Assembly (NCBI RefSeq): GCF_002854065.1
Contig: NZ_CP024147.1
DNA length: 64,000 nucleotides
DNA from: Escherichia coli
GTDB lineage: Bacteria; Pseudomonadota; Gammaproteobacteria; Enterobacterales; Enterobacteriaceae
Direction: 5' to 3' (one strand)
Part shown: one piece after another, positions 8,209 through 44,172 of the stretch
Layout of the letters: every line of letters starts with the position of its first letter
Position numbering within the stretch: position 1 is the stretch's first letter
Made by a program: the position numbers and the translations under genes
Notes under the pieces: model-generated
Seen by the model: only the letters and a program-made list of their open reading frames with translations
The model's database searches: none
What the model was told of the DNA's origin: nothing

Positions 8209-9441
8209 TTAGTACAGCAGACGGGCGCGAATGGTACCCGGAATAGCTTTCATTGCCTGCAGCGCTTTTTCGGCAACGTCTTCGTCGGCTTCAATATCAA
8301 TAACCACATAACCCATCTGGGCGGAAGTTTGTAGATATTGCGCGGCGATGTTGACGCCCTGCTCGGCGAAGATTTTGTTCAGCGCAGTTAGCACGCCCGG
8401 ACGGTTTTCGTGGATGTGCATCAGACGACGCCCACCGTGCAGTGGCAGCGAGACTTCCGGGAAGTTCACCGCAGAGAGCGTTGAGCCATTGTCAGAATAC
8501 TTGATCAATTTACCCGCAACTTCCAGGCCAATATTCTCCTGCGCTTCCTGAGTCGAACCGCCAATGTGTGGCGTCAGAAGGACGTTGTCGAATTCACACA
8601 GCGGAGAGGTAAATGGATCGCTATTGGTCGCCGGTTCCGTCGGGAATACGTCGATTGCCGCCCCCGCCAGATGTTTGCTCGCCAGCGCATCACACAGCGC
8701 CGGAATATCCACCACAGTACCGCGCGAAGCATTAATCAGCAGCGAGCCGGGCTTCATTAGTGAAATTTCTTTCGCGCCCATCATATTTTTGGTGGACGGA
8801 TTCTCTGGTACATGCAGACTCACCACATCGCTCATATTCAGCAGGTCAGAAAGATGCTGTACCTGAGTGGCGTTGCCCAGCGGCAGTTTATTTTCAATAT
8901 CATAAAAGTAAACATACATTCCCAGCGATTCAGCCAGAATGCCCAATTGCGTACCAATATGACCGTAGCCGATGATACCCAGCTTTTTGCCGCGCGCTTC
9001 AAAAGACCCCGCCGCCAGTTTGTTCCACACGCCACGGTGCGCTTTAGCATTGGCTTCCGGCACGCCGCGCAATAGCAACAGCAGTTCGCCAATCACCAGC
9101 TCCGCAACAGAGCGCGTATTTGAGAACGGTGCGTTAAATACCGGGATCCCGCGCTTTGCCGCCGCATCCAGATCAACCTGGTTTGTTCCGATACAGAAAC
9201 AGCCAATAGCGACCAGCTTTTCTGCGGCGTTGATCACGTCTTCAGTCAGATGGGTACGGGATCGCAGGCCGATGAAGTGGGCATCGCGGATGGATTCTTT
9301 TAATTGTTCATCATCCAGCGCGCCTTTGTGAAATTCGATGTTGGTGTAACCAGCTGCACGAAGGCTTTCCAGCGCCTTTTGGTGCACTCCTTCTACCAGC
9401 AGAAACTTAATCTTGTCTTTCTCCAGCGATACCTTTGCCAT
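8209..9441 (-). CDS. serA: D-3-phosphoglycerate dehydrogenase
   Basis: 410-aa ORF MAKVSLEKDKIKFLLVEGVHQKALESL...; NAD-binding GIIGYGHIGTQ motif. Confidence 0.95.
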   Translation of the reverse strand: MAKVSLEKDKIKFLLVEGVHQKALESLRAAGYTNIEFHKGALDDEQLKESIRDAHFIGLRSRTHLTEDVINAAEKLVAIGCFCIGTNQVDLDAAAKRGIPVFNAPFSNTRSVAELVIGELLLLLRGVPEANAKAHRGVWNKLAAGSFEARGKKLGIIGYGHIGTQLGILAESLGMYVYFYDIENKLPLGNATQVQHLSDLLNMSDVVSLHVPENPSTKNMMGAKEISLMKPGSLLINASRGTVVDIPALCDALASKHLAGAAIDVFPTEPATNSDPFTSPLCEFDNVLLTPHIGGSTQEAQENIGLEVAGKLIKYSDNGSTLSAVNFPEVSLPLHGGRRLMHIHENRPGVLTALNKIFAEQGVNIAAQYLQTSAQMGYVVIDIEADEDVAEKALQAMKAIPGTIRARLLY

Positions 9442-20840: not shown

Positions 20841-21029
20841 TCAATATTCCTTTTCAACTGACTCAAAATGGAGAAATACACTCCGCCGCCTTATGACGGG
20901 CAGTCTGACAAGGGTAAACAATAAAGCATAATTTTGCCAAATAGATCACAGATTTCTCATCTGTATCACCTTGCTATTGGCGAAAAAAAGACCCGCAGAG
21001 CGGGGCTCAGACAGATATCAATGTGCGCT

Positions 21030-21140
21030 TTGTCATGCCGGATGCGGCGTGAACGCCTTATCCGGCCTACAAAAACCTGCGAATTCAATATATTGCAGGA
21101 TACGTGTAGGCCTGATAAGCGTAGCGCATCAGGCAATTTT
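21030..21140. repeat. REP/BIME palindromic repeats in mscS-fbaA intergenic region
   Basis: gccggatgcggcgtgaacgccttatccggcctac ... gtaggcctgataagcgtagcgcatcaggc; typical REP consensus. Confidence 0.85.
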
Positions 21141-21148
21141 TCTTTTGG

Positions 21149-21176
21149 CAAAAAAAAGACCCGCAGAGCGGGCCTT
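21149..21176 (-). terminator. rho-independent terminator of fbaA
   Basis: On minus strand ggcccgctctgcgggtc followed by T8; immediately 3' of fbaA stop. Confidence 0.7.
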
Positions 21177-30351: not shown

Positions 30352-31625
30352 TGCGCGGCCTCCCCGATATCAACGCCAAATTGTGCCAGCAGATATTTCT
30401 CGGCCTGTTCATTCCAGATGCCGTGCGTTTCCTCAACCAGCCGCGCCAACTCTTTAAACAGCGGATCGGTTTTGCCTTTTTCGGCAAAATCGGCAATGGC
30501 AGTGAGCGGCATGGTCACGCCGTTATAAATGAGTTTTTTACCGCCAGGGATATCCGGCAGATTGAGCACGGTTTCTGGCACCGCATCCAGGCCACCGATA
30601 TGGGTCACCATAAACGACGGCTGTAACTGCCTAGTGGCGCTAAGGGCAATCGCCTCTTTCATGTCGTCCGTTGAACCGCCGGATGTACCGACAACGTGCG
30701 TGCTGTTGTAATGAACGTTGTAGAAATTAAACGGCACTTTGAAGTTTTTATCCGTCGGCCCGGCAAAGAAGTTCAGACAGCCATCTTCCGCCAGTAATTC
30801 ATCAGCCATCTCAACGACAGCAGGCACCGCCGCATAAACAAAAATGTCATCGAACCCGGCATCTCCTGTCAGCGCCCGCAGCATCTGGACAGGATCGCTC
30901 ATCCCTTTGGTATTCACATACACCAGCTCAATGCCTTTACTGGCCGCCAGTTCCACCGGCAGCAGCTTCTGTACCTGCGCCAGACGTTTGTCGTCGATAT
31001 CGACCACCACCACCCGCGACGGTTGTATGCCGCCGTTAATGGCGTAATCGATAGCGCCAATGCCCATCGGACCTGCACACGCCAGCAGTGCAATATTGCC
31101 GCCAGGTTTGACGCCCATGCGATGCTCATAAACATATTGCGTGGTGTGATAATTGGCATGATAAGCACCAATAATGCAGCACATAGGCTCTGCCAGCGAC
31201 GCCGCAGCAAAATAAGAGCCGTGATACGGTAATACGCAGCCCAAATTAATGGCGATTTCGGGAATAATCATATAAGTGGCATTGCCGCCAAAATATTCGT
31301 AGCTGTAGCCCGCTGAATATCCGCTTGGTAACCCCATCGCCGGTTGCAATACAAAACGCTGGCCTTTTTTATATTTGCCAGTGAGATTTTTACCCACTTC
31401 GATAATAACCCCGGCACATTCATGCCCGGTAATGACCGGATGATTTTCTAAATCGTCGGGTACGCGTTTATGTTCACTACCGAGTAACGCCGCTTTCCAG
31501 GTGGATAAACAGACGCTGTCAGAAATCACACTCACCAGTAATTCATTATCGGTAATTTCTGGCAGTTCAAATTCGCGCAGACGGACATCCCGCTTGCCAT
31601 AAATAGCAGCAACTTTGGTTTTCAT
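30348..31625 (-). CDS. yggP: zinc-type polyol/sugar-phosphate dehydrogenase YggP
   Basis: 425-aa ORF MKTKVAAIYGKRDVRLREFELPE...GHECAGVI; MDR superfamily. Confidence 0.85.
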   Translation of the reverse strand: MKTKVAAIYGKRDVRLREFELPEITDNELLVSVISDSVCLSTWKAALLGSEHKRVPDDLENHPVITGHECAGVIIEVGKNLTGKYKKGQRFVLQPAMGLPSGYSAGYSYEYFGGNATYMIIPEIAINLGCVLPYHGSYFAAASLAEPMCCIIGAYHANYHTTQYVYEHRMGVKPGGNIALLACAGPMGIGAIDYAINGGIQPSRVVVVDIDDKRLAQVQKLLPVELAASKGIELVYVNTKGMSDPVQMLRALTGDAGFDDIFVYAAVPAVVEMADELLAEDGCLNFFAGPTDKNFKVPFNFYNVHYNSTHVVGTSGGSTDDMKEAIALSATRQLQPSFMVTHIGGLDAVPETVLNLPDIPGGKKLIYNGVTMPLTAIADFAEKGKTDPLFKELARLVEETHGIWNEQAEKYLLAQFGVDIGEAAQ

Positions 31626-31639
31626 TTTTACCTCTGTAA

Positions 31640-33028
31640 TCAGTGTTTATGTTCGGCGGTTAATTGATTAAATAAAGTGTCGAGTTTTGGATCGCCAATA
31701 TAGTTATTAATCAATATCAGTGGTTTATCCGTCACACGTTTCACGCGCCCTTCCAGACTGGCATGAGTAACGACGATATCCGCATCCGCAGGCACGTTTT
31801 CTATGGCGTAATGTTTTACTTCAATTGCCAGCCCCGCTTTTTCCAGGCGTTTACGGAAGGTGGTCGCGCCCATCGCACTGGAGCCCATCCCCGCATCGCA
31901 AACAAAGGCGATACGCTTAACCCTGCTTAACGAGAATGCACCCTCTTGTTTCATCGCCTTAACCGCATTGGCTGACTGAGCAAACTCATCTTCGCTCTCC
32001 GTTTCCACCGTTTTTTCCATCTTCAGTATCAGCGAAGTGATAGCAAAGGACACCAGGGTACCTACCGTAACACCGGCAATTGTCGCCAGGAACGAACCTT
32101 TCGGCGTCAGCGCCAGGTAAGCAAAGATAGACCCCGGACTTGGGCCAGCCACCAGACCACCGTCCAGTAAGTTAAACATCCAGGTGCCAGACATACCGCC
32201 CGCAATCATGGCAATAATAGTCAGCGGCTTCATCAGCACATATGGGAAATACAGTTCGTGGATGCCACCGAGGAAGTGAATAATCATCGCCCCGGGCGCA
32301 GAACGTTTACTCATCCCTTTACCAAACAAGGTAAACGCCAGCAGCAGCCCCAGGCCCGGACCTGGGTTAGAGGCCACCATAAAGAAGATGGATTTACCGT
32401 TAACCGAAGCCTGTTGCATTCCCAGCGGATAATAGACGCCCTGATCGATCGCATTATTAAGGAAAAGCACTTTCGCCGGTTCATTGATGACTGACAGCAG
32501 AGGCAGATAACCCGCATGTACCAGCGCCTCAATACACTCTTTGACGAAAGTATTGGCAATTAACACCGCCGGGCCGATCACTTCAAAACCCAGCAGACAA
32601 AGGAGCATCCCCGCGATACCTAATGAGAAGTTATTGATAACCATCTCAAAACCGGCAGGTATGCGTTTTTCCAGTGCCTTATCAACATATTTTATGACCA
32701 GACCACCGAGCGGCCCCATAATCATTGAGCCAAGGAACATCGGGATCTCTGCGCCGACGATCACACCAATAGTACCTATTCCGCCCATGACCGCGCCGCG
32801 TTTACCGCCGACCAGATGACCACCGGTAGAACCAATCATCACGGGCAATAAATAGGTAATCATCGGGCCGACAATTTTGGCGAAATGTTCGTTAGGCAGC
32901 CAACCGGTGGGAATAAATAACGCAGTAATAAAACCCCAGGCAATAAAAGCACCAATATTGGGGATGACCATTGCAGTCAAAAAGCCCCCAAAAGCCTGGA
33001 CCTTTGCACGAGCAGACTTGTTTTCCAT
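31640..33028 (-). CDS. cmtA: mannitol-type PTS enzyme IICB (cryptic)
   Basis: 462-aa membrane ORF MENKSARAKVQAFGGFLTAMVIPNIGAFIAWG... Confidence 0.9.
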   Translation of the reverse strand: MENKSARAKVQAFGGFLTAMVIPNIGAFIAWGFITALFIPTGWLPNEHFAKIVGPMITYLLPVMIGSTGGHLVGGKRGAVMGGIGTIGVIVGAEIPMFLGSMIMGPLGGLVIKYVDKALEKRIPAGFEMVINNFSLGIAGMLLCLLGFEVIGPAVLIANTFVKECIEALVHAGYLPLLSVINEPAKVLFLNNAIDQGVYYPLGMQQASVNGKSIFFMVASNPGPGLGLLLAFTLFGKGMSKRSAPGAMIIHFLGGIHELYFPYVLMKPLTIIAMIAGGMSGTWMFNLLDGGLVAGPSPGSIFAYLALTPKGSFLATIAGVTVGTLVSFAITSLILKMEKTVETESEDEFAQSANAVKAMKQEGAFSLSRVKRIAFVCDAGMGSSAMGATTFRKRLEKAGLAIEVKHYAIENVPADADIVVTHASLEGRVKRVTDKPLILINNYIGDPKLDTLFNQLTAEHKH

Positions 33029-33055
33029 AATATTATCCTGTAGAGGAGAGAGTAA

Positions 33056-33499
33056 TTATCCGCGGCTGATAATGTCCGCTAATTGTTTTTCTGATGATGC
33101 TGTTAAGAGTTGTTCGAGTATTTCTTCTTCGCACAGTAATTCACTTAACGCCTGAATAGCGCCAATGTGCGAATCGGCATCGGCAGCAGAGAGTCCGATG
33201 AGTAATTTAATTGGTTCGTCATTCCCCGGAAAATAAACACCTTGTTCAAGTAATGTCAAAGACATCCCGGTTTTAAGCGCCCCACATTCCGGTCGCGCAT
33301 GAGGCATTGCCACGCCTGGTGCGAGAATATAATAAGGGCCATTGTTGATGGTGGAATCTTTAATAGCCTGAATGTAATTCTCGCTGATATAGTTTTTATC
33401 CAGCAATGATGCCATCGAGAAATCGATAGCTTCCTGCCAATCTTTTGCTGAATGTATAACTGAGATTGATGATTCTGGAAAATAATCACTAAGCCGCAT
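33056..33499 (-). CDS. cmtB: mannitol-type PTS enzyme IIA (cryptic)
   Basis: 147-aa ORF; PTS EIIA(Mtl) fold with active-site His region GVAMPHARPE. Confidence 0.9.
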   Translation of the reverse strand: MRLSDYFPESSISVIHSAKDWQEAIDFSMASLLDKNYISENYIQAIKDSTINNGPYYILAPGVAMPHARPECGALKTGMSLTLLEQGVYFPGNDEPIKLLIGLSAADADSHIGAIQALSELLCEEEILEQLLTASSEKQLADIISRG

Positions 33500-33570
33500 A
33501 AATTATCCTTATTTTATTTTTAGGGTGCCGTCCGGCGGTAAAAATAAAATACTCGGGTAATGACTCCAAC

Positions 33571-34074
33571 TTATTGATAGTGTTTTATGTTCAGATAATG
33601 CCCGATGACTTTGTCATGCAGCTCCACCGATTTTGAGAACGACAGCGACTTCCGTCCCAGCCGTGCCAGGTGCTGCCTCAGATTCAGGTTATGCCGCTCA
33701 ATTCGCTGCGTATATCGCTTGCTGATTACGTGCAGCTTTCCCTTCAGGCGGGATTCATACAGCGGCCAGCCATCCGTCATCCATATCACCACGTCAAAGG
33801 GTGACAGCAGGCTCATAAGACGCCCCAGCGTCGCCATAGTGCGTTCACCGAATACGTGCGCAACAACCGTCTTCCGGAGACTGTCATACGCGTAAAACAG
33901 CCAGCGCTGGCGCGATTTAGCCCCGACATAGCCCCACTGTTCGTCCATTTCCGCGCAGACGATGACGTCACTGCCCGGCTGTATGCGCGAGGTTACCGAC
34001 TGCGGCCTGAGTTTTTTAAGTGACGTAAAATCGTGTTGAGGCCAACGCCCATAATGCGGGCAGTTGCCCGGCAT
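33571..34074 (-). CDS. insB: IS1 InsB' frame (expressed as InsAB' by -1 frameshift)
   Basis: 167-aa ORF overlapping insA 3' end; IS1 transposase catalytic region. Confidence 0.9.
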
Positions 34075-34268
34075 CCAACGCCATTCATGGCCATATCAAT
34101 GATTTTCTGGTGCGTACCGGGTTGAGAAGCGGTGTAAGTGAACTGCAGTTGCCATGTTTTACGGCAGTGAGAGCAGAGATAGCGCTGATGTCCGGCGGTG
34201 CTTTTGCCGTTACGCACCACCCCGTCAGTAGCTGAACAGGAGGGACAGCTGATAGAAACAGAAGCCAC
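33993..34268 (-). CDS. insA: IS1 InsA (transposition inhibitor / N-terminal part of InsAB' transposase)
   Basis: 91-aa [46 protein letters not shown]... Confidence 0.95.
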
Positions 34269-34653
34269 TGGAGCACCTCAAAAACACCATCATACACTAA
34301 ATCAGTAAGTTGGCAGCATCACCAAATACTCGTGCGGTTTAATGAAAGCAATTGGGTACGCGAGAAGAAAAACCCCATAAACCAAAATAATAAAACCTTA
34401 AATAACAACAATATGAAATTGATATCTTTAAAGTCAACTTTGTGTTTGTTATGTTTATCACAAAATCAACATTTTGTTTGTTATTGTATTTGTGATGCAT
34501 ATCTCTATTTATTTATTGAATGTTCGAAAACATACTTTTCTAATGCAATGTTTTTTCGCTATACCCCTTTATAGAATCTGAATTCTCACCTGTCGGCTGT
34601 TTTCTCCTCATCTCATGTGACATATTCCCACACTTTACTCAAGGAAGATTGTC

Positions 34654-35562
34654 ATGAAAGCACCTGTTTCATTAACCTCATTTCGCCCACAAAAATCTCT
34701 TGCTATCGCCATCGGCGTGCTTGCCGTGGTTGTGCTGCCATTTCTCTCGTATTACACCGTTAATGAAGGTGAACGCGGCATTTTGCTGCGCTACGGAAAA
34801 ATCGTAAAAGTTGCCGAGCCGGGTCTGGGTTTTAAGATCCCGTTTATGGAAAGCGTGGAGAAAATTTCCACGCGTAATCAGGCTGTGGTCTATCAGGGAT
34901 TACAGGCCTACAGCCGCGACCAGCAACCGGCACAAATGACAGTATCAGTCAGCTTCCACATTAAACCTTCAGAAGCAGGCGCGGTTTATACCACCTACAA
35001 CACCATTGAAGCATTAAAAGATCGTCTGATTGTCCGTCAGTTGCCAACTCAACTGGAGAACGTTTTCGGCCAATATACCGCCATCAGCGCTGTACAGGAT
35101 CGTACAAAACTGGTTCAGGATCTGCAAAATGCCATGCGCAAAGCCGTTGTTGGGCCAGTGGTAATTGACGGGGTCCAGATTGAAAATATTGATTTTTCTG
35201 ACGCTTATGAAAAGTCGATTGAAGACCGAATGAAAGCAGAAGTCGCCATTGCCACGCGTAAGCAAAATCTGGAAACAGAGAAAATCCAGGCGCAAATAGC
35301 GGTAACTCAGGCCCAGGCAGAAGCAGACAGTAAACTGGCGGCAGCCAAAGCAGAAGCGGAAACTATTCGCGTAAGAGGCGCGGCAGAGGCTGAAACTATT
35401 CGTTTAAAAAGTGCGGCTGAAGCAGAAGCAATCCGCCTGCGCGGTGAAGCTCTGCGGGATAATCCCGGACTTGTAGCCCTCACCACTGCCGAACGTTGGG
35501 ACGGTAAACTGCCCGATACCATGATCCCCGGCAGCACAGTTCCGTTTATCTCTACTAAGTAA
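34654..35562 (+). CDS. SPFH/band-7 (prohibitin/stomatin-like) membrane protein with C-terminal Ala/Glu-rich repeats
   Basis: 302-aa ORF; N-terminal TM helix IAIGVLAVVVLPFL, SPFH-like core, C-terminal repeats AEAETIRVRGAAEAETIRLKSAAEAEAIRLRGEA; preceded by 330-bp AT-rich region. Confidence 0.7.
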   Translation: MKAPVSLTSFRPQKSLAIAIGVLAVVVLPFLSYYTVNEGERGILLRYGKIVKVAEPGLGFKIPFMESVEKISTRNQAVVYQGLQAYSRDQQPAQMTVSVSFHIKPSEAGAVYTTYNTIEALKDRLIVRQLPTQLENVFGQYTAISAVQDRTKLVQDLQNAMRKAVVGPVVIDGVQIENIDFSDAYEKSIEDRMKAEVAIATRKQNLETEKIQAQIAVTQAQAEADSKLAAAKAEAETIRVRGAAEAETIRLKSAAEAEAIRLRGEALRDNPGLVALTTAERWDGKLPDTMIPGSTVPFISTK

Positions 35563-35604
35563 AAAAAGGGCCGCTTTCGCGGCCCTTGAGAGTGATGGCA
35601 AAAG

Positions 35605-35725
<121 letters not shown>

Positions 35726-35781
35726 TTACCAATAATCTAAAGGGCCGCTTTCGCGGCCCTTCTCACAAAACGTCTTACTGA

Positions 35782-37773
35782 TTACAGCAGCGCTTTTGCT
35801 TTCGCAACAACGTTATCAACAGTGAAGCCGAACTCTTCAAACAGCAGCTCTGCCGGAGCAGATTCACCGAAGGTGGTCATACCGACGATAGCACCGTTCA
35901 GGCCAACATACTTGTACCAGTAGTCAGCAATACCCGCTTCTACCGCAACGCGTGCAGTAACCGCTTTCGGCAGTACGGATTCACGGTAAGCCGCATCCTG
36001 CTTGTCGAATGCATCGGTAGACGGCATGGAAACCACGCGCGCCTTCACGCCTTCGGCAGTCAGTTTTTCGTAGGCGGCAACAGCCAGTTCAACTTCCGAA
36101 CCGGTCGCGATGAAGATCAGTTCCGGCTGACCGGCACAGTCTTTCAGCACATAACCACCGCGCGCGATGTTTGCCAGCTGCTCTTCAGTACGCTCCTGCT
36201 GCGCCAGGTTCTGACGGGAGAGGATAAGCGCGGTCGGGCCGTCCTGACGCTCAACACCGTATTTCCATGCCACTGCAGATTCAACCTGGTCACATGGACG
36301 CCATGTAGACATGTTCGGGGTCACGCGCAGAGAAGCAACCTGCTCTACCGGCTGGTGAGTCGGGCCATCTTCGCCCAGACCGATGGAGTCGTGGGTGTAA
36401 ACCATCACCTGACGCTGTTTCATCAGCGCAGCCATACGTACGGCATTACGTGCGTATTCTACGAACATCAGGAAGGTGGAGGTGTACGGCAGGAAGCCAC
36501 CGTGCAGGGAGATACCGTTAGCAATCGCGGTCATACCGAACTCGCGAACACCGTAGTGGATGTAGTTACCCGCAGCATCTTCGTTGATTGCTTTAGAACC
36601 AGACCACAGGGTCAGGTTAGACGGTGCCAGGTCAGCGGAGCCGCCGAGGAATTCCGGCAACAGCGGACCGAACGCTTCGATAGCATTCTGCGACGCTTTA
36701 CGGCTGGCGATTTTCGCCGGATTAGCCTGCAGTTTAGCAATGAACTCTTTCGCTTTCGCGTCGAAGTCAGACGGCATTTCACCTTTCATACGACGGGTGA
36801 ATTCAGCCGCTTCCTGCGGGAAGGCTTTGGCGTAAGCCGCGAATTTCTCATTCCAGGCAGCTTCTTTCGCCTGGCCTGCTTCTTTCGCATCCCACTGCGC
36901 ATAGATTTCAGACGGGATTTCGAACGGTGCGTATTTCCAGCCCAGCTGTTCGCGGGTCAGAGCGATTTCTGCATCACCCAGCGGCGCACCGTGGGAGTCG
37001 TGAGTACCGGCTTTGTTCGGGGAACCGAAACCGATGATGGTTTTGCACATCAGCAGGGACGGTTTGTCAGTCACTGCGCGCGCTTCTTCTACTGCGCGTT
37101 TGATGGATGCTGCGTCATGACCGTCGATGTCGCGAATAACGTGCCAGCCGTAAGCTTCGAAACGCATTGCGGTGTCGTCGGTGAACCAGCCTTCAACGTG
37201 ACCATCAATAGAGATACCGTTGTCATCGTAGAACGCAATCAGTTTACCCAGCTTCAGCGTACCCGCCAGAGAGCAAACTTCGTGGGAGATGCCTTCCATC
37301 ATGCAGCCGTCGCCCATGAAGGCGTAGGTGTAGTGATCGACAATGTCGTGGCCCGGACGGTTAAACTGCGCCGCCAGCGTTTTTTCTGCAATCGCCATAC
37401 CTACTGCGTTGGCAATACCCTGCCCCAGCGGACCGGTGGTGGTTTCCACACCAGCGGTGTAACCCACTTCCGGGTGGCCCGGAGTTTTAGAGTGCAGCTG
37501 ACGGAAGTTTTTCAGTTCTTCCATCGGCAGATCGTAACCGGTGAGGTGCAGCAGGCTGTAGATCAGCATGGAGCCGTGGCCGTTGGACAGCACGAAGCGG
37601 TCACGGTCAGCCCAGGACGGATTCTGCGGGTTGTGTTTCAGGAAATCACGCCACAGGACTTCGGCAATGTCAGCCATACCCATAGGGGCACCCGGGTGAC
37701 CGGATTTGGCTTTCTGTACTGCGTCCATGCTCAGCGCACGAATAGCATTGGCAAGCTCTTTACGTGAGGACAT
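35782..37773 (-). CDS. tktA: transketolase 1
   Basis: Track ORF 35782..37803 trimmed to [41 protein letters not shown]... (663 aa). Confidence 0.95.
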
Positions 37774-38050
37774 TTTGACTCCAGATCGGATGATGAAGGG
37801 CACGCCCTTAACGACTTGACGACAGCGCGTTTTGGGCTACGCCGGAAAATTTGCCAACAATTTACCGCAAGCCGCGCGTCATGTACATGGAACATCCTTT
37901 TGCCGCTTCAGAAATCTCTGGATCATGCTCGCATGTTGCGCAATCTACTCGCCCGTCCGCTGCGCTTTTCCTTATACTGAGACTGAGCGTCGGTTCACCT
38001 GCAAACGGCGCATTTTTAGAATAATCCTGACCTTGTGCGGAAGAAAAAAC

Positions 38051-38809
38051 ATGAAAATTCGCGCCTTATTGGTAGCAATGAGCGTGGCAACGGTACTGAC
38101 TGGTTGCCAGAATATGGACTCCAACGGACTGCTCTCATCAGGAGCGGAAGCTTTTCAGGCTTACAGTTTGAGTGATGCTCAGGTGAAAACCCTGAGCGAT
38201 CAGGCATGTCAGGAGATGGACAGCAAGGCGACGATTGCGCCAGCCAATAGCGAATACGCTAAACGTCTGACAACCATTGCCAACGCGCTAGGCAACAATA
38301 TCAACGGTCAGCCAGTGAATTACAAAGTGTATATGGCGAAGGATGTGAACGCCTTTGCGATGGCTAACGGCTGTATCCGCGTCTATAGCGGGCTGATGGA
38401 TATGATGACGGATAACGAAGTCGAAGCGGTGATCGGTCACGAAATGGGGCACGTGGCGTTAGGCCATGTGAAGAAAGGGATGCAGGTGGCACTTGGTACA
38501 AATGCCGTGCGAGTCGCGGCGGCCTCTGCGGGCGGTATCGTCGGCAGTTTATCGCAATCACAGCTTGGTGATCTGGGCGAGAAATTAGTCAATTCGCAAT
38601 TCTCCCAGCGCCAGGAAGCAGAGGCGGATGATTACTCCTACGATTTACTGCGCCAACGCGGCATCAGTCCGGCAGGTCTTGCCACCAGCTTTGAAAAACT
38701 GGCAAAACTGGAAGAAGGTCGCCAAAGCTCAATGTTTGACGACCATCCAGCATCCGCCGAACGCGCCCAGCATATTCGCGATCGTATGAGCGCGGACGGG
38801 ATTAAGTAA
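38051..38809 (+). CDS. loiP: outer-membrane lipoprotein metalloprotease LoiP (YggG), M48 family
   Basis: Track ORF 37832..38809 trimmed to MKIRALLVAMSVATVLTGCQ (lipobox) ... HEMGHVALGH zinc motif; 252 aa. Confidence 0.92.
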   Translation: MKIRALLVAMSVATVLTGCQNMDSNGLLSSGAEAFQAYSLSDAQVKTLSDQACQEMDSKATIAPANSEYAKRLTTIANALGNNINGQPVNYKVYMAKDVNAFAMANGCIRVYSGLMDMMTDNEVEAVIGHEMGHVALGHVKKGMQVALGTNAVRVAAASAGGIVGSLSQSQLGDLGEKLVNSQFSQRQEAEADDYSYDLLRQRGISPAGLATSFEKLAKLEEGRQSSMFDDHPASAERAQHIRDRMSADGIK

Positions 38810-38820
38810 GGCATGGTGGT

Positions 38821-39120
38821 GCCAAACGTAGTTCAGATAAGGCATTTACGCCGCATCTGACATAAATGGCACATTCACTACCTCGTGCGCATTGCCGGAT
38901 GCGATGCTGGCGCATCTTATCCGGCCTACGGGTGCCAAACGTAGGTCAGATAAGGCGTTCACCCCGCATCTGACATGAATGGCACATTTGTTACCTTGTG
39001 CGCATTGCCGGATGCGATGCTGGCGCATCTTATCCGGCCTACGGGTGCCGAACGTAGGTCGGATAAGGCGTTCACGCTGCATCCGACATTAATGGCACGT
39101 TTTACCCGTGCGCATCGCAT
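38821..39120. repeat. BIME cluster: about 2.6 tandem copies of a ~113-bp REP-containing unit
   Basis: Unit gccaaacgtag..cagataaggc..ccgcatctgacat..gcgcattgccggatgcgatgctggcgcatcttatccggcctacgggt repeated from 38821, 38934 and 39046. Confidence 0.9.
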
Positions 39121-39127
39121 CTGGTGC

Positions 39128-40048
39128 TTACTCGCCCTTTTTCGCCGCCTGAATATACAGCATTTCCAGCGCCAGCGTTGCCGCTGCCAGAGCGGTGATT
39201 TCCGACTGATCGTATGCCGGAGCCACTTCCACTACGTCCATCCCAACGATGTTGAGATCTTTCAGGCCGCGTACCAGTTTAATAGCGCGATCGGAGGTCA
39301 GACCGCCAATTACCGGCGTACCGGTTCCCGGCGCAAATGCAGGATCCAGGCAGTCGATATCAAAGGTCAGGTAAACCGGCATATCACCCACAATTTGTTT
39401 CACCTGGGCGATAACGTCATCCACGCTGCGATCGTTCACCTGGCAGGCGTCCAGCACGGTAAAGCCGTTGTCTTTATCAAATTCGGTACGAATACCAATC
39501 TGCACGGAATGATTCGGATCGATCAGACCTTCTTTCGGCGCGGTATAGAACATGGTGCCGTGGTCAAATTCACAACCGTTCGCGTAGGTATCGGTGTGGG
39601 CGTCAAAGTGTACCAGCGCCATTTTGCCGAAATGCTTCGCATGAGCACGCAGCAGCGGCAGCGTAACAAAGTGGTCACCACCGAAGGAGAGCATACGCTT
39701 ACCGGCAGCCAGCAGCTTCTCGGCGTGTGCCTGCAGTTTTTCGCTCATCTCACGGGCATCGCCGAAGGCATATACCAGATCGCCGCAGTCCACCACGTTC
39801 AGACGCTCGCGCATGTCGAAATTCCACGGGAAGCGGTTGTGTTCCCAGGCCAGGTTAGTCGAAACCTGGCGAATCGCCGCCGGGCCATGACGACCACCGG
39901 CACGGCCAGAGGTGGCCATGTCGAACGGCACGCCGGTGATCACCCAGTCGGCATCGCTGTCATACGGCTGGAAGTTCATCGGCAGGCGTAAAAAACCAAA
40001 GGCGTTGGAAACCAGTGAGTTATCGTATTGATGACCTAAGGTGCTCAT
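39128..40048 (-). CDS. speB: agmatinase (agmatine ureohydrolase)
   Basis: 306-aa [63 protein letters not shown]...; arginase fold. Confidence 0.95.
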
Positions 40049-40071
40049 GGATGGACTCCTATTACAAAGTC

Positions 40072-40118
40072 GATATAAAAAAACCCTTCCGCGTCGTTAG
40101 GCCCGACGAGGAAGGGTT
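40072..40118 (-). terminator. rho-independent terminator 25 nt upstream of speB start
   Basis: Minus strand aacccttcctcgtcgggcctaacgacgcggaagggtt followed by T7. Confidence 0.6.
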
Positions 40119-40183
40119 GGATTTGCGAAACACAAGTTTGTGCTAATTATCGCCTTAAATGGGCGAGGCATCAAGCGAGGTTG

Positions 40184-40650
40184 CTATTTCCGACACGGTG
40201 GCGGCGCATAGCCATTGTTATCTGCCGGAAAGGCTTGTCCAGAGCACGGCGGCAGCGCGTTTTGCGCCTGGCCTTGTAATTCAAAGGCGGCAAAGCCGAT
40301 TACACCGGTATTACGCACATCGCCTTGCGCCGAATTGGCTGCGTAGGAATCAGCAACGTTGGCGAACTGAAAAGCCGCTTCGGTATGTTTATCTTTGCGG
40401 AATCCTTTAATCGCTAACGAATCTCCGGCATTCACAATATAGCCGTTGTTATTCAGCGAACCTTGCTTGCCGTTCAGCACATCCAGGCCATCAACCGTAG
40501 CAACGATCTCGTAGTTGGTGTTACGACTGTAATTACGAACATATAATTGATAATTCATTCCGACTCTGGCGTGGACAATATAGCGTGGTTCATTATTGGA
40601 TGAATCATAAACACGCGTAATAGGTAGAGAATTAAAATTACCATCGCGAA
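40184..40650 (-). pseudogene. 3' fragment of unknown gene, 5'-truncated by IS1 copy 2 (Asn/Tyr/Gly-rich, two C-terminal Cys)
   Basis: Minus-strand frame is open from IS1 boundary (40650) to stop at 40184, about 155 codons ending ...NALPPCSGQAFPADNNGYAPPPCRK; track shows only the part from the first Met (40184..40558); not recognisable as speA. Confidence 0.45.
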
Positions 40651-40665
40651 GGTAATGACTCCAAC

Positions 40666-41169
40666 TTATTGATAGTGTTTTATGTTCAGATAATGCCCGA
40701 TGACTTTGTCATGCAGCTCCACCGATTTTGAGAACGACAGCGACTTCCGTCCCAGCCGTGCCAGGTGCTGCCTCAGATTCAGGTTATGCCGCTCAATTCG
40801 CTGCGTATATCGCTTGCTGATTACGTGCAGCTTTCCCTTCAGGCGGGATTCATACAGCGGCCAGCCATCCGTCATCCATATCACCACGTCAAAGGGTGAC
40901 AGCAGGCTCATAAGACGCCCCAGCGTCGCCATAGTGCGTTCACCGAATACGTGCGCAACAACCGTCTTCCGGAGCCTGTCATACGCGTAAAACAGCCAGC
41001 GCTGGCGCGATTTAGCCCCGACGTATCCCCACTGTTCGTCCATTTCCGCGCAGACGATGACGTCACTGCCCGGCTGTATGCGCGAGGTTACCGACTGCGG
41101 CCTGAGTTTTTTAAATGGCGGAAAATCGTGTTGAGGCCAACGCCCATAATGCGGGCGGTTGCCCGGCAT
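40666..41169 (-). CDS. insB: IS1 InsB' frame
   Basis: 167-aa ORF; differs from copy 1 at several residues ([22 protein letters not shown]...). Confidence 0.9.
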
Positions 41170-41363
41170 CCAACGCCATTCATGGCCATATCAATGATTT
41201 TCTGGTGCGTACCGGGTTGAGAAGCGGTGTAAGTGAACTGCAGTTGCCATGTTTTACGGCAGTGAGAGCAGAGATAGCGCTGATGTCCGGCAGTGCTTTT
41301 GCCGTTACGCACCACCCCGTCAGTAGCTGAACAGGAGGGACAGCTGATAGAAACAGAAGCCAC
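41088..41363 (-). CDS. insA: IS1 InsA
   Basis: 91-aa ORF; one residue differs from copy 1 (NTIFRHL vs NTILRHL). Confidence 0.95.
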
Positions 41364-41418
41364 TGGAGCACCTCAAAAACACCATCATACACTAAATCAG
41401 TAAGTTGGCAGCATCACC

Positions 41419-42058
41419 CTCATGGGGTTATACATCAGCCGGGATTTCAAAAGCCTTCGGTGATGATAAATATCAACAGCAGTATTTATCACAGCGCAGC
41501 GGGTTTGCTATAGGTGAGGATGGTTTTGCATGGGGCCGCATGGACTATGATTCCGCGCTAATTGTCGATGCTACGGATTTGCCCGAAGATCAGTATTTCG
41601 AGGTGCGTAATCGTAATTCGGCACCAACGATTGTAAAAGGTGGTCAGAAAACAACGCTTTCTATGGAGCCGTATCGTAAGGTCGCACCAGAAGCTGAACA
41701 ACTCTACAGCAATAATATGGATGCTTATTACAATCTGAAAACGGAGTCTACTTCTACCTGGGCGAAACCAGGGCAAGTTTATAAAGTTAAACTTTCCGCA
41801 ACCCGGAATCTGACCGTCACCGGACGCCTTTATTTTGACGGTCAACCGTTGATTAACGCCAGGGTCGTTGGTGGGAATGCAATGGCAGATACTGATGGCT
41901 TATTTGTTGGTGATTTTACACTCCAGACAAATGAACAACTTAAATCTGTGAAAGTTAAACAAGACGGGCGTGATTTCATCTGTCCACTGCTGGATGAAAA
42001 TATCAAACTTGCGCAGGGTATTATGCAAATTCGTGAGGTTAATTGTGAAGTTCAATAA
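41419..42058 (+). pseudogene. C-terminal fragment of fimbrial outer-membrane usher, 5'-truncated by IS1 copy 2
   Basis: Frame open from IS1 boundary; C-terminus ...KVKQDGRDFICPLLDENIKLAQGIMQIREVNCEVQ parallels the two-Cys usher tail of FimD (...VQVKWGEEENAHCVANYQLPPESQQQLLTQLSAECR) as I recall it. Confidence 0.55.
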
Positions 42059-42062
42059 ATGG

Positions 42063-42755
42063 ATGGCTCTTTTTTTAGGATTGTTGGCTGGGTTTTCTAC
42101 CGTAGCGCAAGCTATTGAGGTGTTTCCTATTGTAAAAGAAATAAAGGAAGAAACGCCAAGAGATAATTATATTACCGTTAAGTCTATGTTTAAGCTGAAT
42201 GATAAAGTTGATGTTCCAGAACCAGACAAACAGCAATATGAATTCGTTACGCTTGATCTCTATCACATAAAAAACCCAGGCGATAAAAAAGAAAATATGG
42301 AAAAGGAATTGGGGACGGAAAACCCTGCGCTGGTATTTTCACCGACCAAACTGGTTATTCCATTCGGTGAAGAAAGGAAAATTCGCATCATGCCTATGCG
42401 TCCGGTTGATCATGAAACGGTATACAGGCTGCGTGTACGACCAAGTTATCCGGAACAGGCCCTTGAAAAAGGGAAGGTCCGTTTTGCTATTGGATATGAT
42501 GTTTTAATTCGTTATCTCCCGTCAGGTAAGCACACTCAGGGGATACAGATTAGCTGTGATAAAAACAACTGGCATTTGAAAGCAACCGGTAATGTAAGAA
42601 GTGAATTACGTAAATTGGTGATTGATGGCCGGATGCAGGAGGGGAATTTCAATGTTTATCCGGAAAACAGCAGAACTCTTAACGTGAATAAACGTCTTTC
42701 CTTCGAAATGGATGGAAAAACGCTGGTTTACGAAAATTGTCTGCTTAAGGAGTAA
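42063..42755 (+). CDS. putative periplasmic fimbrial chaperone (PapD-like)
   Basis: Track ORF 41970..42755 trimmed to MALFLGLLAGFSTVAQA signal peptide; about 230 aa; RYLP-type motif (FAIGYDVLIRYLP); follows usher fragment. Confidence 0.45.
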   Translation: MALFLGLLAGFSTVAQAIEVFPIVKEIKEETPRDNYITVKSMFKLNDKVDVPEPDKQQYEFVTLDLYHIKNPGDKKENMEKELGTENPALVFSPTKLVIPFGEERKIRIMPMRPVDHETVYRLRVRPSYPEQALEKGKVRFAIGYDVLIRYLPSGKHTQGIQISCDKNNWHLKATGNVRSELRKLVIDGRMQEGNFNVYPENSRTLNVNKRLSFEMDGKTLVYENCLLKE

Positions 42756-42758
42756 TTC

Positions 42759-43649
42759 ATGCGCTCATGGTTCTGTTTAATTGCACTGTTGTTGCCTGGC
42801 ATTGTATTTGCGAGTGGTGAGATGATTATTCAGCCTCAAAGTAAGGGGGCGGTTCACTTCCTTGCCCGTGGTCTTTCTTCTGGCGGCGACAATATTATCT
42901 CTGCTGCTTACAGCGCCGGGCGGCCTCTGTCTGTTTTATTTAGCCCGACAGGAAACGGACATTGTGAGGGCGATTTTTTGGCTGTGGATCATCTCCGGTT
43001 GTCTGTTCAGCAAGCAGGTGAAAATACTTCTTATACCTGTGGCGTTCCGGTAACGATCGAAAGTCCTTCGAAGGATGGGATCCTGCGCCTTCAGTTAACG
43101 AACTCGACGTCTGTTCAGGATTTCTCCTCATTGATGAGAACAGACGGGGGCCTGAGACAGCAAATTGGTAATTTGCAAATAACCCAGCAAGGTAATGAAA
43201 GTTTTATTGTCCCGATTTATCTGGATCTCACTATTTTGCAGAATCAGGTGGTTACGATAGCTGCTTCATTTGAAAAGCCATCTCTTCAACTTGGGCTGGT
43301 AGGCCCGGAACATGATGCTTCAGAGACTGTGGGTCTGCGCGTCAGCAAAACATTACAGGCAGGTGAGGAGGCGATGCTTTATCGCGTAACATTTGAATCT
43401 TCTCAACTGAAGGATAATAGGTTCCATTTACTATCCTCTGTTGATCATCAGTTTATTCCTTATCAAATCTATATATCTGGTGTCGAAGTTACCCCTTCTC
43501 AGCCTTATGTAAGTGAGCTGCCGCAGGGAAAGGCAACTTCTGAATTGCTTGATGTAAGATTCAATTTGTCTGGCCGAGCTGTTCGTGGCATGGCTGCCGG
43601 TTCGCGCTTACTTGATACGGTAACCGCAGTAGTAACCCCGGAAAGTTAA
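42759..43649 (+). CDS. putative fimbrial tip adhesin or minor subunit (secreted, 296 aa)
   Basis: Signal peptide MRSWFCLIALLLPGIVFA; two Cys in N-terminal half; C-terminal beta-strand-like TVTAVVTP; operon position. Confidence 0.45.
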   Translation: MRSWFCLIALLLPGIVFASGEMIIQPQSKGAVHFLARGLSSGGDNIISAAYSAGRPLSVLFSPTGNGHCEGDFLAVDHLRLSVQQAGENTSYTCGVPVTIESPSKDGILRLQLTNSTSVQDFSSLMRTDGGLRQQIGNLQITQQGNESFIVPIYLDLTILQNQVVTIAASFEKPSLQLGLVGPEHDASETVGLRVSKTLQAGEEAMLYRVTFESSQLKDNRFHLLSSVDHQFIPYQIYISGVEVTPSQPYVSELPQGKATSELLDVRFNLSGRAVRGMAAGSRLLDTVTAVVTPES

Positions 43650-43662
43650 ACTGGAGAATAAA

Positions 43663-44172
43663 ATGAAATTAACTTTTTTACCTGTTGTGCTGTCGGTAGC
43701 ATTTTGTAGTCAGGTTCAGGCTGTTGTACCGGTCAAAACATCTATTGATGTGCAGGCTGAAATCAGTACTGCGGTTAATATTTATGTTAATGGCCAGGAT
43801 GTCACCAATAAATCTATCAGTGTCAATCTGAAAGATGAAGGTGGCTATATGAAAGGCAGTACGCCACCTTTCCAGTTTGTTGGCAACGCCAGTTCTGTTG
43901 CCCTTTCGCTCCAGGCTCCGCCAGCGAATGGGTTGGTCGGCCCTGAAAATAAAGTTATGCCTTTACTGACATCCTGGTTCAATCCGGATGCGAATGCTGA
44001 AGTTTCGACAAGTTTTCCCTTTTCAAATATCAAGGTTTATCCAACGTTACAGGACGTACCTGATCCACAGAATGGTGTAAAAGTGGTATTTCGCTCGAAG
44101 GAGCGTAGCGAAACTTTCCCCTTGGGAACATATAGCGGGACTTATACCGTTATTGTAACGCCATCAGTTTAA
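43663..44172 (+). CDS. putative fimbrial subunit (secreted, 169 aa)
   Basis: Signal peptide MKLTFLPVVLSVAFCSQVQA; pilin-like size; C-terminal alternating hydrophobic strand GTYSGTYTVIVTPSV. Confidence 0.45.
   Translation: MKLTFLPVVLSVAFCSQVQAVVPVKTSIDVQAEISTAVNIYVNGQDVTNKSISVNLKDEGGYMKGSTPPFQFVGNASSVALSLQAPPANGLVGPENKVMPLLTSWFNPDANAEVSTSFPFSNIKVYPTLQDVPDPQNGVKVVFRSKERSETFPLGTYSGTYTVIVTPSV

Follow-up and report, generated by a model that had tools for sequence, protein, structure and literature searches.

Which event left an intact insertion sequence standing between the remnants of two genes in a chromosome of Escherichia coli, with unlike sequences on its two sides? The question is raised by a stretch of 64,000 nucleotides, referred to here as the window, which holds two copies of IS1. 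Both are full length (768 bp) and point the same way, their transposase being encoded by the minus strand. A probe for the IRL end gave two exact matches, at 33556 and 40651, and a probe for the IRR end also gave two, at 34323 and 41418; shuffled sequences are expected to yield none for either probe. Both copies have the length of approx. 768 bp and the imperfect terminal inverted repeats GGTAATGACTCCAACTTATTGAT and GGTGATGCTGCCAACTTACTGAT of the element, and they differ from each other at eight positions. Copy 1 (33556..34323, minus strand, 768 bp) lies in the intergenic region that separates cmtB from the prohibitin gene and is bordered by aaatactcg at 33547-33555 and again at 34324-34332, a perfect 9-bp duplication. 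It is absent from E. coli CUWW06, the closest complete genome (approx. 99.98% identical to the window), which was used as the reference. Relative to CUWW06, copy 1 is a clean insertion whose flanks overlap by 9 bp. Copy 1 is a simple insertion, and the perfect duplication ascribed to it in a first-pass annotation of this DNA was borne out both by the sequence and by the comparison with CUWW06.

Copy 2 occupies positions 40651..41418 (minus strand, 768 bp), with IRL toward a lipoprotein gene fragment and IRR toward a fimbrial usher fragment. The limits originally given for it, 40559-41430, reached approx. 92 bp too far to the left and 12 bp too far to the right; position 40559 is the first ATG of the truncated reading frame and not the end of the element. 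The adjoining sequences, catcgcgaa (40642-40650) and ctcatgggg (41419-41427), had been called different from each other, and they do agree at only two of nine positions. The genes of the element are intact: insA (41088-41363, minus strand) encodes 91 amino acids and insB (40666-41169, minus strand) encodes 167, and the A6C motif for the -1 frameshift is found at 41106-41112, where the strand shown reads gtttttt (aaaaaac in reverse complement). Moreover, copy 2 is 100% identical to both IS1B-type copies located beside the usher gene in CUWW06, which are annotated as IS1B-family transposase with a programmed frameshift. Since copy 2 lacks the 8-9 bp duplication, it is regarded as lying at a rearrangement junction, while still being a member of the IS1 family.

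The gene broken on the left side lies next to speB (agmatinase; 39128..40048, minus strand), which is intact. Its 3' fragment (40184..40650, minus strand) comprises 467 nt, or 155 codons, and is collinear with positions 8300-8766 of CUWW06 L001. As the first-pass annotation had stated, open frames extend as far as the two ends of copy 2; on this side, the minus-strand frame stays open for 156 codons, from 40651 to its stop codon at 40184. The last 9 nt of the fragment (catcgcgaa) constitute a copy of the IS1 target. In CUWW06, the complete gene (CDS L001 8300-9031) encodes a protein of 243 amino acids and is situated between speB and speA. The left breakpoint falls inside this CDS, at nucleotide 265/266 (L001 8766), and 467 of the 732 nt are kept in the window. 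A 5'-truncated gene on the minus strand is therefore present as had been proposed; the label "unknown" can be replaced by that of an accessory lipoprotein gene flanked by speB and speA, for which a protein family search found no informative family match. The left flank (speB and the adjacent open reading frame) matches nearly every complete E. coli genome, and in approx. two thirds of these genomes it is present over its entire length. Frameshifted alleles of the lipoprotein gene occur in many genomes. A 124-amino-acid C-terminal open reading frame of this gene is annotated in many lineages whose frameshifts are unrelated, and it is uninformative for finding junctions of the type seen in the window.

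On the right side, copy 2 abuts the 3' fragment of a gene for a TcfC/CooC-type fimbrial usher (41419..42058, plus strand), which retains approx. 212 codons and the stop codon of a protein that is 853 amino acids long at full length. The plus-strand frame opens at a TTG inside the end of IS1 (41405) and continues to 42058. Without any difference, the fragment corresponds to the last 212 amino acids of the CUWW06 usher (CDS L001 43208-45748, annotated as "TcfC E-set like domain-containing protein"), and the right breakpoint lies within this CDS at approx. codon 641. The fragment has a recorded Pfam assignment (PF15976, CooC_C), and its NCBI name is "CS1-pili formation C-terminal domain-containing protein"; it matches the NCBIfam TcfC model weakly, with E = 5e-5 and a score of 21 bits where the cutoff is 1428. 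The domain assignment and the identity to the CUWW06 protein both agree with the earlier description of this frame as the C-terminus of a fimbrial usher, truncated at its 5' end like the gene on the other side. With 75% of the protein missing, the fragment cannot provide a working usher. It is on record as AUJ97362.1 (CR539_19655), a 172-amino-acid version that begins at an internal ATG, and as WP_249824097.1 (217 amino acids), the first residues of which are encoded by the end of IS1. The right flank is present in seven of 5,426 complete E. coli genomes, with a 100% match only in CUWW06.

Alignment of both flanks to CUWW06 defines the ancestral arrangement. In CUWW06, the gene order is loiP, speB, the lipoprotein gene, speA, yqgB and so on through metK and galP, then mutY, and then speC, yqgA and pheV. 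Beyond pheV lies an island in decay, which comprises remnants of a T6SS, three hypothetical genes and the usher gene, with two IS1 copies after it; in the window, too, pheV (tRNA-Phe; 49484..49559, minus strand) separates the core genes from this eroded, usher-bearing island. Positions 1-31208 of the window correspond to CUWW06 L047 4894-36101 with five mismatches and no gaps, positions 31108-33555 are 100% identical to and collinear with L001 1-2448, and, after copy 1 (33556-34323, no CUWW06 counterpart, 9-bp flank overlap), positions 34324-40650 are collinear with L001 2440-8766. Copy 2 (40651-41418) has no counterpart at this site. From 41419 to 64000, the window matches the opposite strand of CUWW06, from L001 43847 down to 21266, at 99.978% identity and without gaps. 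Altogether, there are 13 mismatches and no gaps in approx. 62 kb. The two flanks of copy 2 are thus 35,081 bp apart in CUWW06, and the DNA between them is kept in the window in reverse. The visible part of the reversed segment (41419..64000) amounts to 22,582 of the 35,081 bp and includes the 3' part of the usher gene, three open reading frames of the fimbrial operon, the T6SS remnants, pheV, yqgA, speC, nupG, mltC and mutY, onward to yggS.

Because the flanks are 35,081 bp apart in CUWW06 and the right one is reversed there, copy 2 represents one end of an inversion. The alignment directly shows the inversion relative to a near-identical genome and the exact base at which each breakpoint falls, as well as the undamaged IS1 at the junction, and the 3' parts of the lipoprotein and usher genes now point away from each other across a single IS1. 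Copy 2 is very probably a genuine inversion breakpoint. A simple insertion with a mutated duplication, or an IS1-mediated deletion of the DNA between the flanks, has next to no chance of being the correct explanation: the missing duplication at copy 2 is all that speaks for either, and both are ruled out by the large separation and opposite strands of the flanks in CUWW06, by their agreement at two of nine positions, and by the presence of the intervening genes, which are retained in the window in inverted order. Of the "deletion or inversion" suggested in the first-pass annotation, the inversion therefore stands and the deletion, on the lipoprotein side, does not; the statement that copy 2 is not a simple insertion holds as well, since its flanks are not contiguous in the related genome.

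The other end of the inversion is predicted to lie near coordinate 76,500, approx. 12.5 kb past the end of the window. As this position is outside the window, we infer the second IS1, its orientation and the DNA beyond it, together with the second copy of the 9 bp. The products expected from the reciprocal junction were predicted from the CUWW06 sequence. The 5' part of the lipoprotein gene, joined to the duplicated 9 bp and then to either end of IS1, would encode 92 amino acids ending in EYAIRDG, with the stop codon supplied by an IS1-type end (GGTAA or GGTGA) directly after the 9 bp; without the 9 bp, the product would end in EYAR. Exactly this 92-amino-acid sequence is on record as AUJ97398.1 (CR539_19860). 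In particular, the usher fragment CR539_19655 and CR539_19860 are 41 locus tags apart, and the corresponding genes of CUWW06 are 40 apart. The 92-amino-acid product is the same whichever end of IS1 adjoins the gene, so that it shows neither the orientation nor the completeness of the element, and it also arises in unrelated lineages. If the CR539 record represents the source of the window, the 9-bp target appears to have been split and inverted, with one copy beside each IS1. The matching 9-bp flank, which the first-pass annotation proposed to look for at a reciprocal junction elsewhere in the genome, has in this way been found indirectly, through a protein product. The left, right and predicted reciprocal junctions were not found in 5,426 complete E. 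coli genomes, among which CUWW06 is the sole member of this lineage. Exact-pattern searches for the observed and predicted junctions gave no match in the genome_contigs and metagenome_contigs collections, which do not include this lineage and are hence uninformative on this point.

The same records bear on the suspicion that the junction at copy 2 was created by a mis-join of the assembly across the 768-bp repeat, or that both orientations coexisted in the culture. It is true that the junctions confirmed independently come from short contigs that end inside IS1, so that the connectivity is provided by the source assembly only. However, the window is continuous, with a full IS1 between the flanks, apparently within a single contig of 4.64 Mb; assemblies of this kind use long reads, which normally extend across a repeat of 768 bp; and the locus tags at either end are ordered in accordance with the inverted layout. 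An artifact or a mixture of this kind is therefore very unlikely.

The two ends of copy 2 do not seem to be of the same age. The junction between IRR and the usher gene recurs with 100% identity in contig JAPQBK010000042.1 (GCA_035821435.1), in an ENA metagenome scaffold and in Logan contigs that represent two or more sequencing runs. Its recurrence in several datasets indicates that the junction is real and has been sampled repeatedly. JAPQBK010000042.1 is 41,556 bp long and begins 74 nt inside IS1. An un-inverted chromosome in which a contig extends from the usher IS1 to IS1 copy 1, entering both through IRR, would give 74 + 41,408 + 74 = 41,556 bp, which is an exact fit, the 41,408 nt being those from L001 43847 down to 2440 in CUWW06. 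From an inverted genome, in contrast, a contig interrupted at the lipoprotein site would be 35,238 bp long. Alleles of tkt, endA and prohibitin proved too widespread to lead to the far part of the contig. Judging from the size arithmetic, GCA_035821435.1 would carry copy 1 and the IS1-usher junction, and its lipoprotein gene would be unbroken and the segment un-inverted. Since this genome would be un-inverted and yet possess the IS1-usher junction, the junction appears to predate the inversion.

The origin of the older junction can be approached through CUWW06, in which the usher gene is cut at codon 12 by an IS1 (IS1a, L001 45735-46502) whose IRR is directed toward the usher. IS1a has no target duplication (CCCAGCCCG against CACGCAAAG), and the sequence directly past it, from L001 46503 onward, reads CACGCAAAGCACTG; the neighboring IS1b has a clean duplication, GCTCTTCAG. 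Copy 2 of the window is 100% identical to IS1a and presents the same end, IRR, to the usher gene. In strain PapRG-06-5, the usher is intact (853 amino acids); two small open reading frames and a Tad cluster precede it, and a complete T6SS comes after it. The cuts in CUWW06 (codon 12) and in the window (approx. codon 641) have the look of deletions that are nested and that both start from the same IRR end. The simplest reading is that the usher gene was truncated by nested adjacent deletions extending from one end of one IS1, first to codon 12 and then to approx. codon 641, with the removal of 1,887 bp.

The classical deletions of the gal region were made by IS1. Adjacent, or "replicative", deletions by IS1 go back to Turlan and Chandler (1995, EMBO J), as cited in PMC4471558 and PMC12428005. 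The usher junction resembles such deletions in that one end of IS1 seems to have remained fixed while DNA at the other end was lost, and in that a truncated gene abuts the element without a duplication. It differs from them in that the view from the window would be the same after a fresh insertion into the usher gene, with or without recombination with a neighboring IS1. Such a fresh IS1 insertion, either alone or with later recombination against IS1a, may indeed account for the junction. The N-terminal usher fusion product that it would leave (ending in DNSWGVMTPTY) was sought in seven start variants and was not found among approx. 15 billion proteins; this absence carries little weight, because pseudogenes are often left untranslated in annotations and Logan contigs are fragmentary.

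With the nested deletions as its first stage, a two-step route accounts for the whole structure and is, by a modest preference, the one considered most probable here: an adjacent deletion followed by intramolecular replicative transposition of IS1 in trans. The starting point would be the order loiP-speB-lipoprotein-speA, continuing to speC-yqgA-pheV and the island with the T6SS remnants and the fimbrial operon, and ending with IS1. In the first step, IS1 would come to abut the usher gene through its IRR end, most likely by a further adjacent deletion (replicative, in cis) made, in unchanged orientation, by the same IS1 that truncates the gene at codon 12 in CUWW06. In the second step, the usher IS1 would attack the lipoprotein gene of the same chromosome at the 9-bp target ttcgcgatg, replicatively and in trans. 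The intervening DNA would be inverted at one stroke, and each end would receive one copy of the 9 bp and one IS1, the two elements being in opposite orientation. Three features fit the in-trans route: the apparently older IRR-usher junction has been kept, the junction between IRL and the lipoprotein gene appears to be new, and the 9 bp appear to be present at both halves of the lipoprotein gene. Both the order of events and the one-step nature of the inversion are inferred.

The second step corresponds to a known type of transposition. According to PMC4471558, replicative intramolecular transposition in trans inverts the DNA and leaves inverted IS copies and a split target duplication, while the reaction in cis results in a deletion. 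The same paper (He et al. 2015, mBio) documents the route for IS26 and Tn4401 in clinical plasmids and, with reference to Turlan and Chandler (1995), reports that it is used by IS1-family elements. Moreover, a 2025 study (PMC12428005) found that IS1 transposed replicatively, with the donor copy retained, in 210 of 210 intrachromosomal events scored. The locus resembles the duplicative inversions by IS26 and Tn4401 in having no abutted duplication, inverted DNA, an apparently split target duplication and two gene halves that lie far apart. In contrast to those cases, the element is IS1, with a 9-bp target, the segment is chromosomal and 35 kb long, and only one of the two IS copies is located inside the window, the other being predicted.

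Inversions can also be generated by homologous recombination between inverted IS copies, and these occur in the chromosomes of E. coli and Shigella. For the present locus, two separate IS1 insertions would be needed, one in or beside the usher gene and one, in opposite orientation, at the lipoprotein site, after which RecA-dependent recombination between the inverted copies would flip the 35 kb. The resulting end structure and distribution of the 9-bp flanks would be identical to those expected from the two-step route, and the segment, which would be bracketed by inverted IS copies with exchanged flanks, is like the recombination inversions of E. coli and Shigella. Furthermore, the same 9-bp target in the lipoprotein gene carries independent IS1 insertions elsewhere, in both orientations, which makes this explanation plausible, and IS1 is found at other positions in the gene in approx. 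15 complete genomes. In CP055786.1 (L002), there is a simple insertion with the duplication ttcgcgatg, in which a different IS1 variant lies in opposite orientation with its IRL beside the 5' part of the gene. At a second locus (L003), IRR lies beside the 5' part of the gene at the same target. The latter arrangement (lipoN-IRR) was considered as the reciprocal junction of the present lineage and rejected: the 1.5 kb next to the junction contain 13 differences from CUWW06, and the arrangement thus represents an independent event.

Recombination costs one event more than inversion in one step, and, unlike the E. coli and Shigella inversions, it would here presuppose a second IS1 at the lipoprotein site, of which none has been seen in this lineage. 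The un-inverted order with both IS1 copies in place was encountered in no genome or contig, and the junction of the lipoprotein C-terminal part with IRL (lipoC-IRL) in the orientation of the window occurs in none of the 5,426 complete genomes; in a lineage so thinly sampled, both absences count for little. Inversion by recombination is accordingly possible, if rather doubtful. It remains the replicative route in trans that is preferred.

The choice of the target may have a reason of its own. The sequence ttcgcgatg in the lipoprotein gene directly precedes GGTAAT, the first six bases of IRL. It could be proposed that ttcgcgatg, followed by this mimic of the IS1 end and hit independently in several lineages, is a sequence-directed hot spot, that these hits together with the many frameshifted alleles reflect a recurrent loss of the lipoprotein, possibly under selection, and that the site captured an intramolecular transposition in the present case, thereby uncoupling speA from speB. 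This proposal is speculative and is considered unlikely.

The feature is an ordinary, already known kind of IS-driven rearrangement and does not imply a new mechanism; its main value is for annotation and bookkeeping. It explains two pseudogenes and the reversal of approx. 40 core genes, among them speA, metK, galP, gshB, mutY, speC and pheV, relative to close relatives, and it has separated speA from speB. Together with the other two genomes, the window also outlines a staged erosion of the fimbrial operon by IS1, from the intact usher of 853 amino acids in PapRG-06-5, through the cut at codon 12 in CUWW06, to the cut at approx. codon 641 combined with the inversion.

The exact 9-bp target in the accessory lipoprotein gene between speA and speB (ttcgcgatg, or catcgcgaa at 40642-40650 in the window) is also occupied by IS1 in unrelated E. 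coli lineages, among them CP055786.1 (L002, 10265-11050) and an independent lineage (L003, 10255-10390), and both orientations of the element are found across lineages. The target is directly followed by GGTAAT, which resembles an IS1 end, and it appears to be a site-specific hot spot for IS1. At the same breakpoint, or at most 1-2 nt away, the 5' part of the gene in GCA_021702555.1 (L006, 10274-10298) is followed by non-IS1 sequence, GTTGATGCGCCGCGCGATAAATGC; the identical 92-aa product is still encoded despite this join.

Inactivation of the lipoprotein gene is common, as surveyed in loci L036-L045 and complete genomes H45-H64. Differing frameshifts leave N-terminal fragments 66 to 119 aa long, and in approx. 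one third of complete genomes most of the query stretch comprising speB and the lipoprotein gene is missing. IS1 occupies several further positions, e.g., 43 bp upstream in L045; LY180, AQ15, and SL112, which derive from E. coli W, are further examples.

IS1 copy 1 (33556-34323) is a simple insertion of recent date between the divergent cmtB and prohibitin genes. CUWW06, the closest complete genome, lacks this copy, which differs from copy 2 at 8 positions, the two being distinct sequence variants. In CUWW06, IS1a (L001, 45735-46502) adjoins the usher and lacks a target duplication, which marks it as a rearrangement or deletion junction in its own right. IS1b (L001, 46848-47615), 345 bp from IS1a, splits a winged-helix regulator gene and has a clean target duplication, GCTCTTCAG.

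Near pheV (49484-49559), a 325-aa ORF on the plus strand (48146-49123) begins with a DotU/TssL part and ends with the C-terminal part of a Wadjet JetD; Pfam DotU and JetD_C are both recorded for this fusion in locus L012. The fusion is presumably a deletion scar marking the loss of most of the T6SS cluster and part of a Wadjet system, whereas the T6SS cluster is intact in PapRG-06-5. No IS is present at the fusion junction.

The loiP-speB intergenic region (38818-39115) contains two overlapping self-matching stretches of approx. 188 bp each, offset by approx. 113 bp and approx. 89% identical to each other. This probable short tandem or REP-like repeat is also found in CUWW06. A separate element of approx. 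100-130 bp has copies at 21023-21150, 35599-35727, and 61413-61608.
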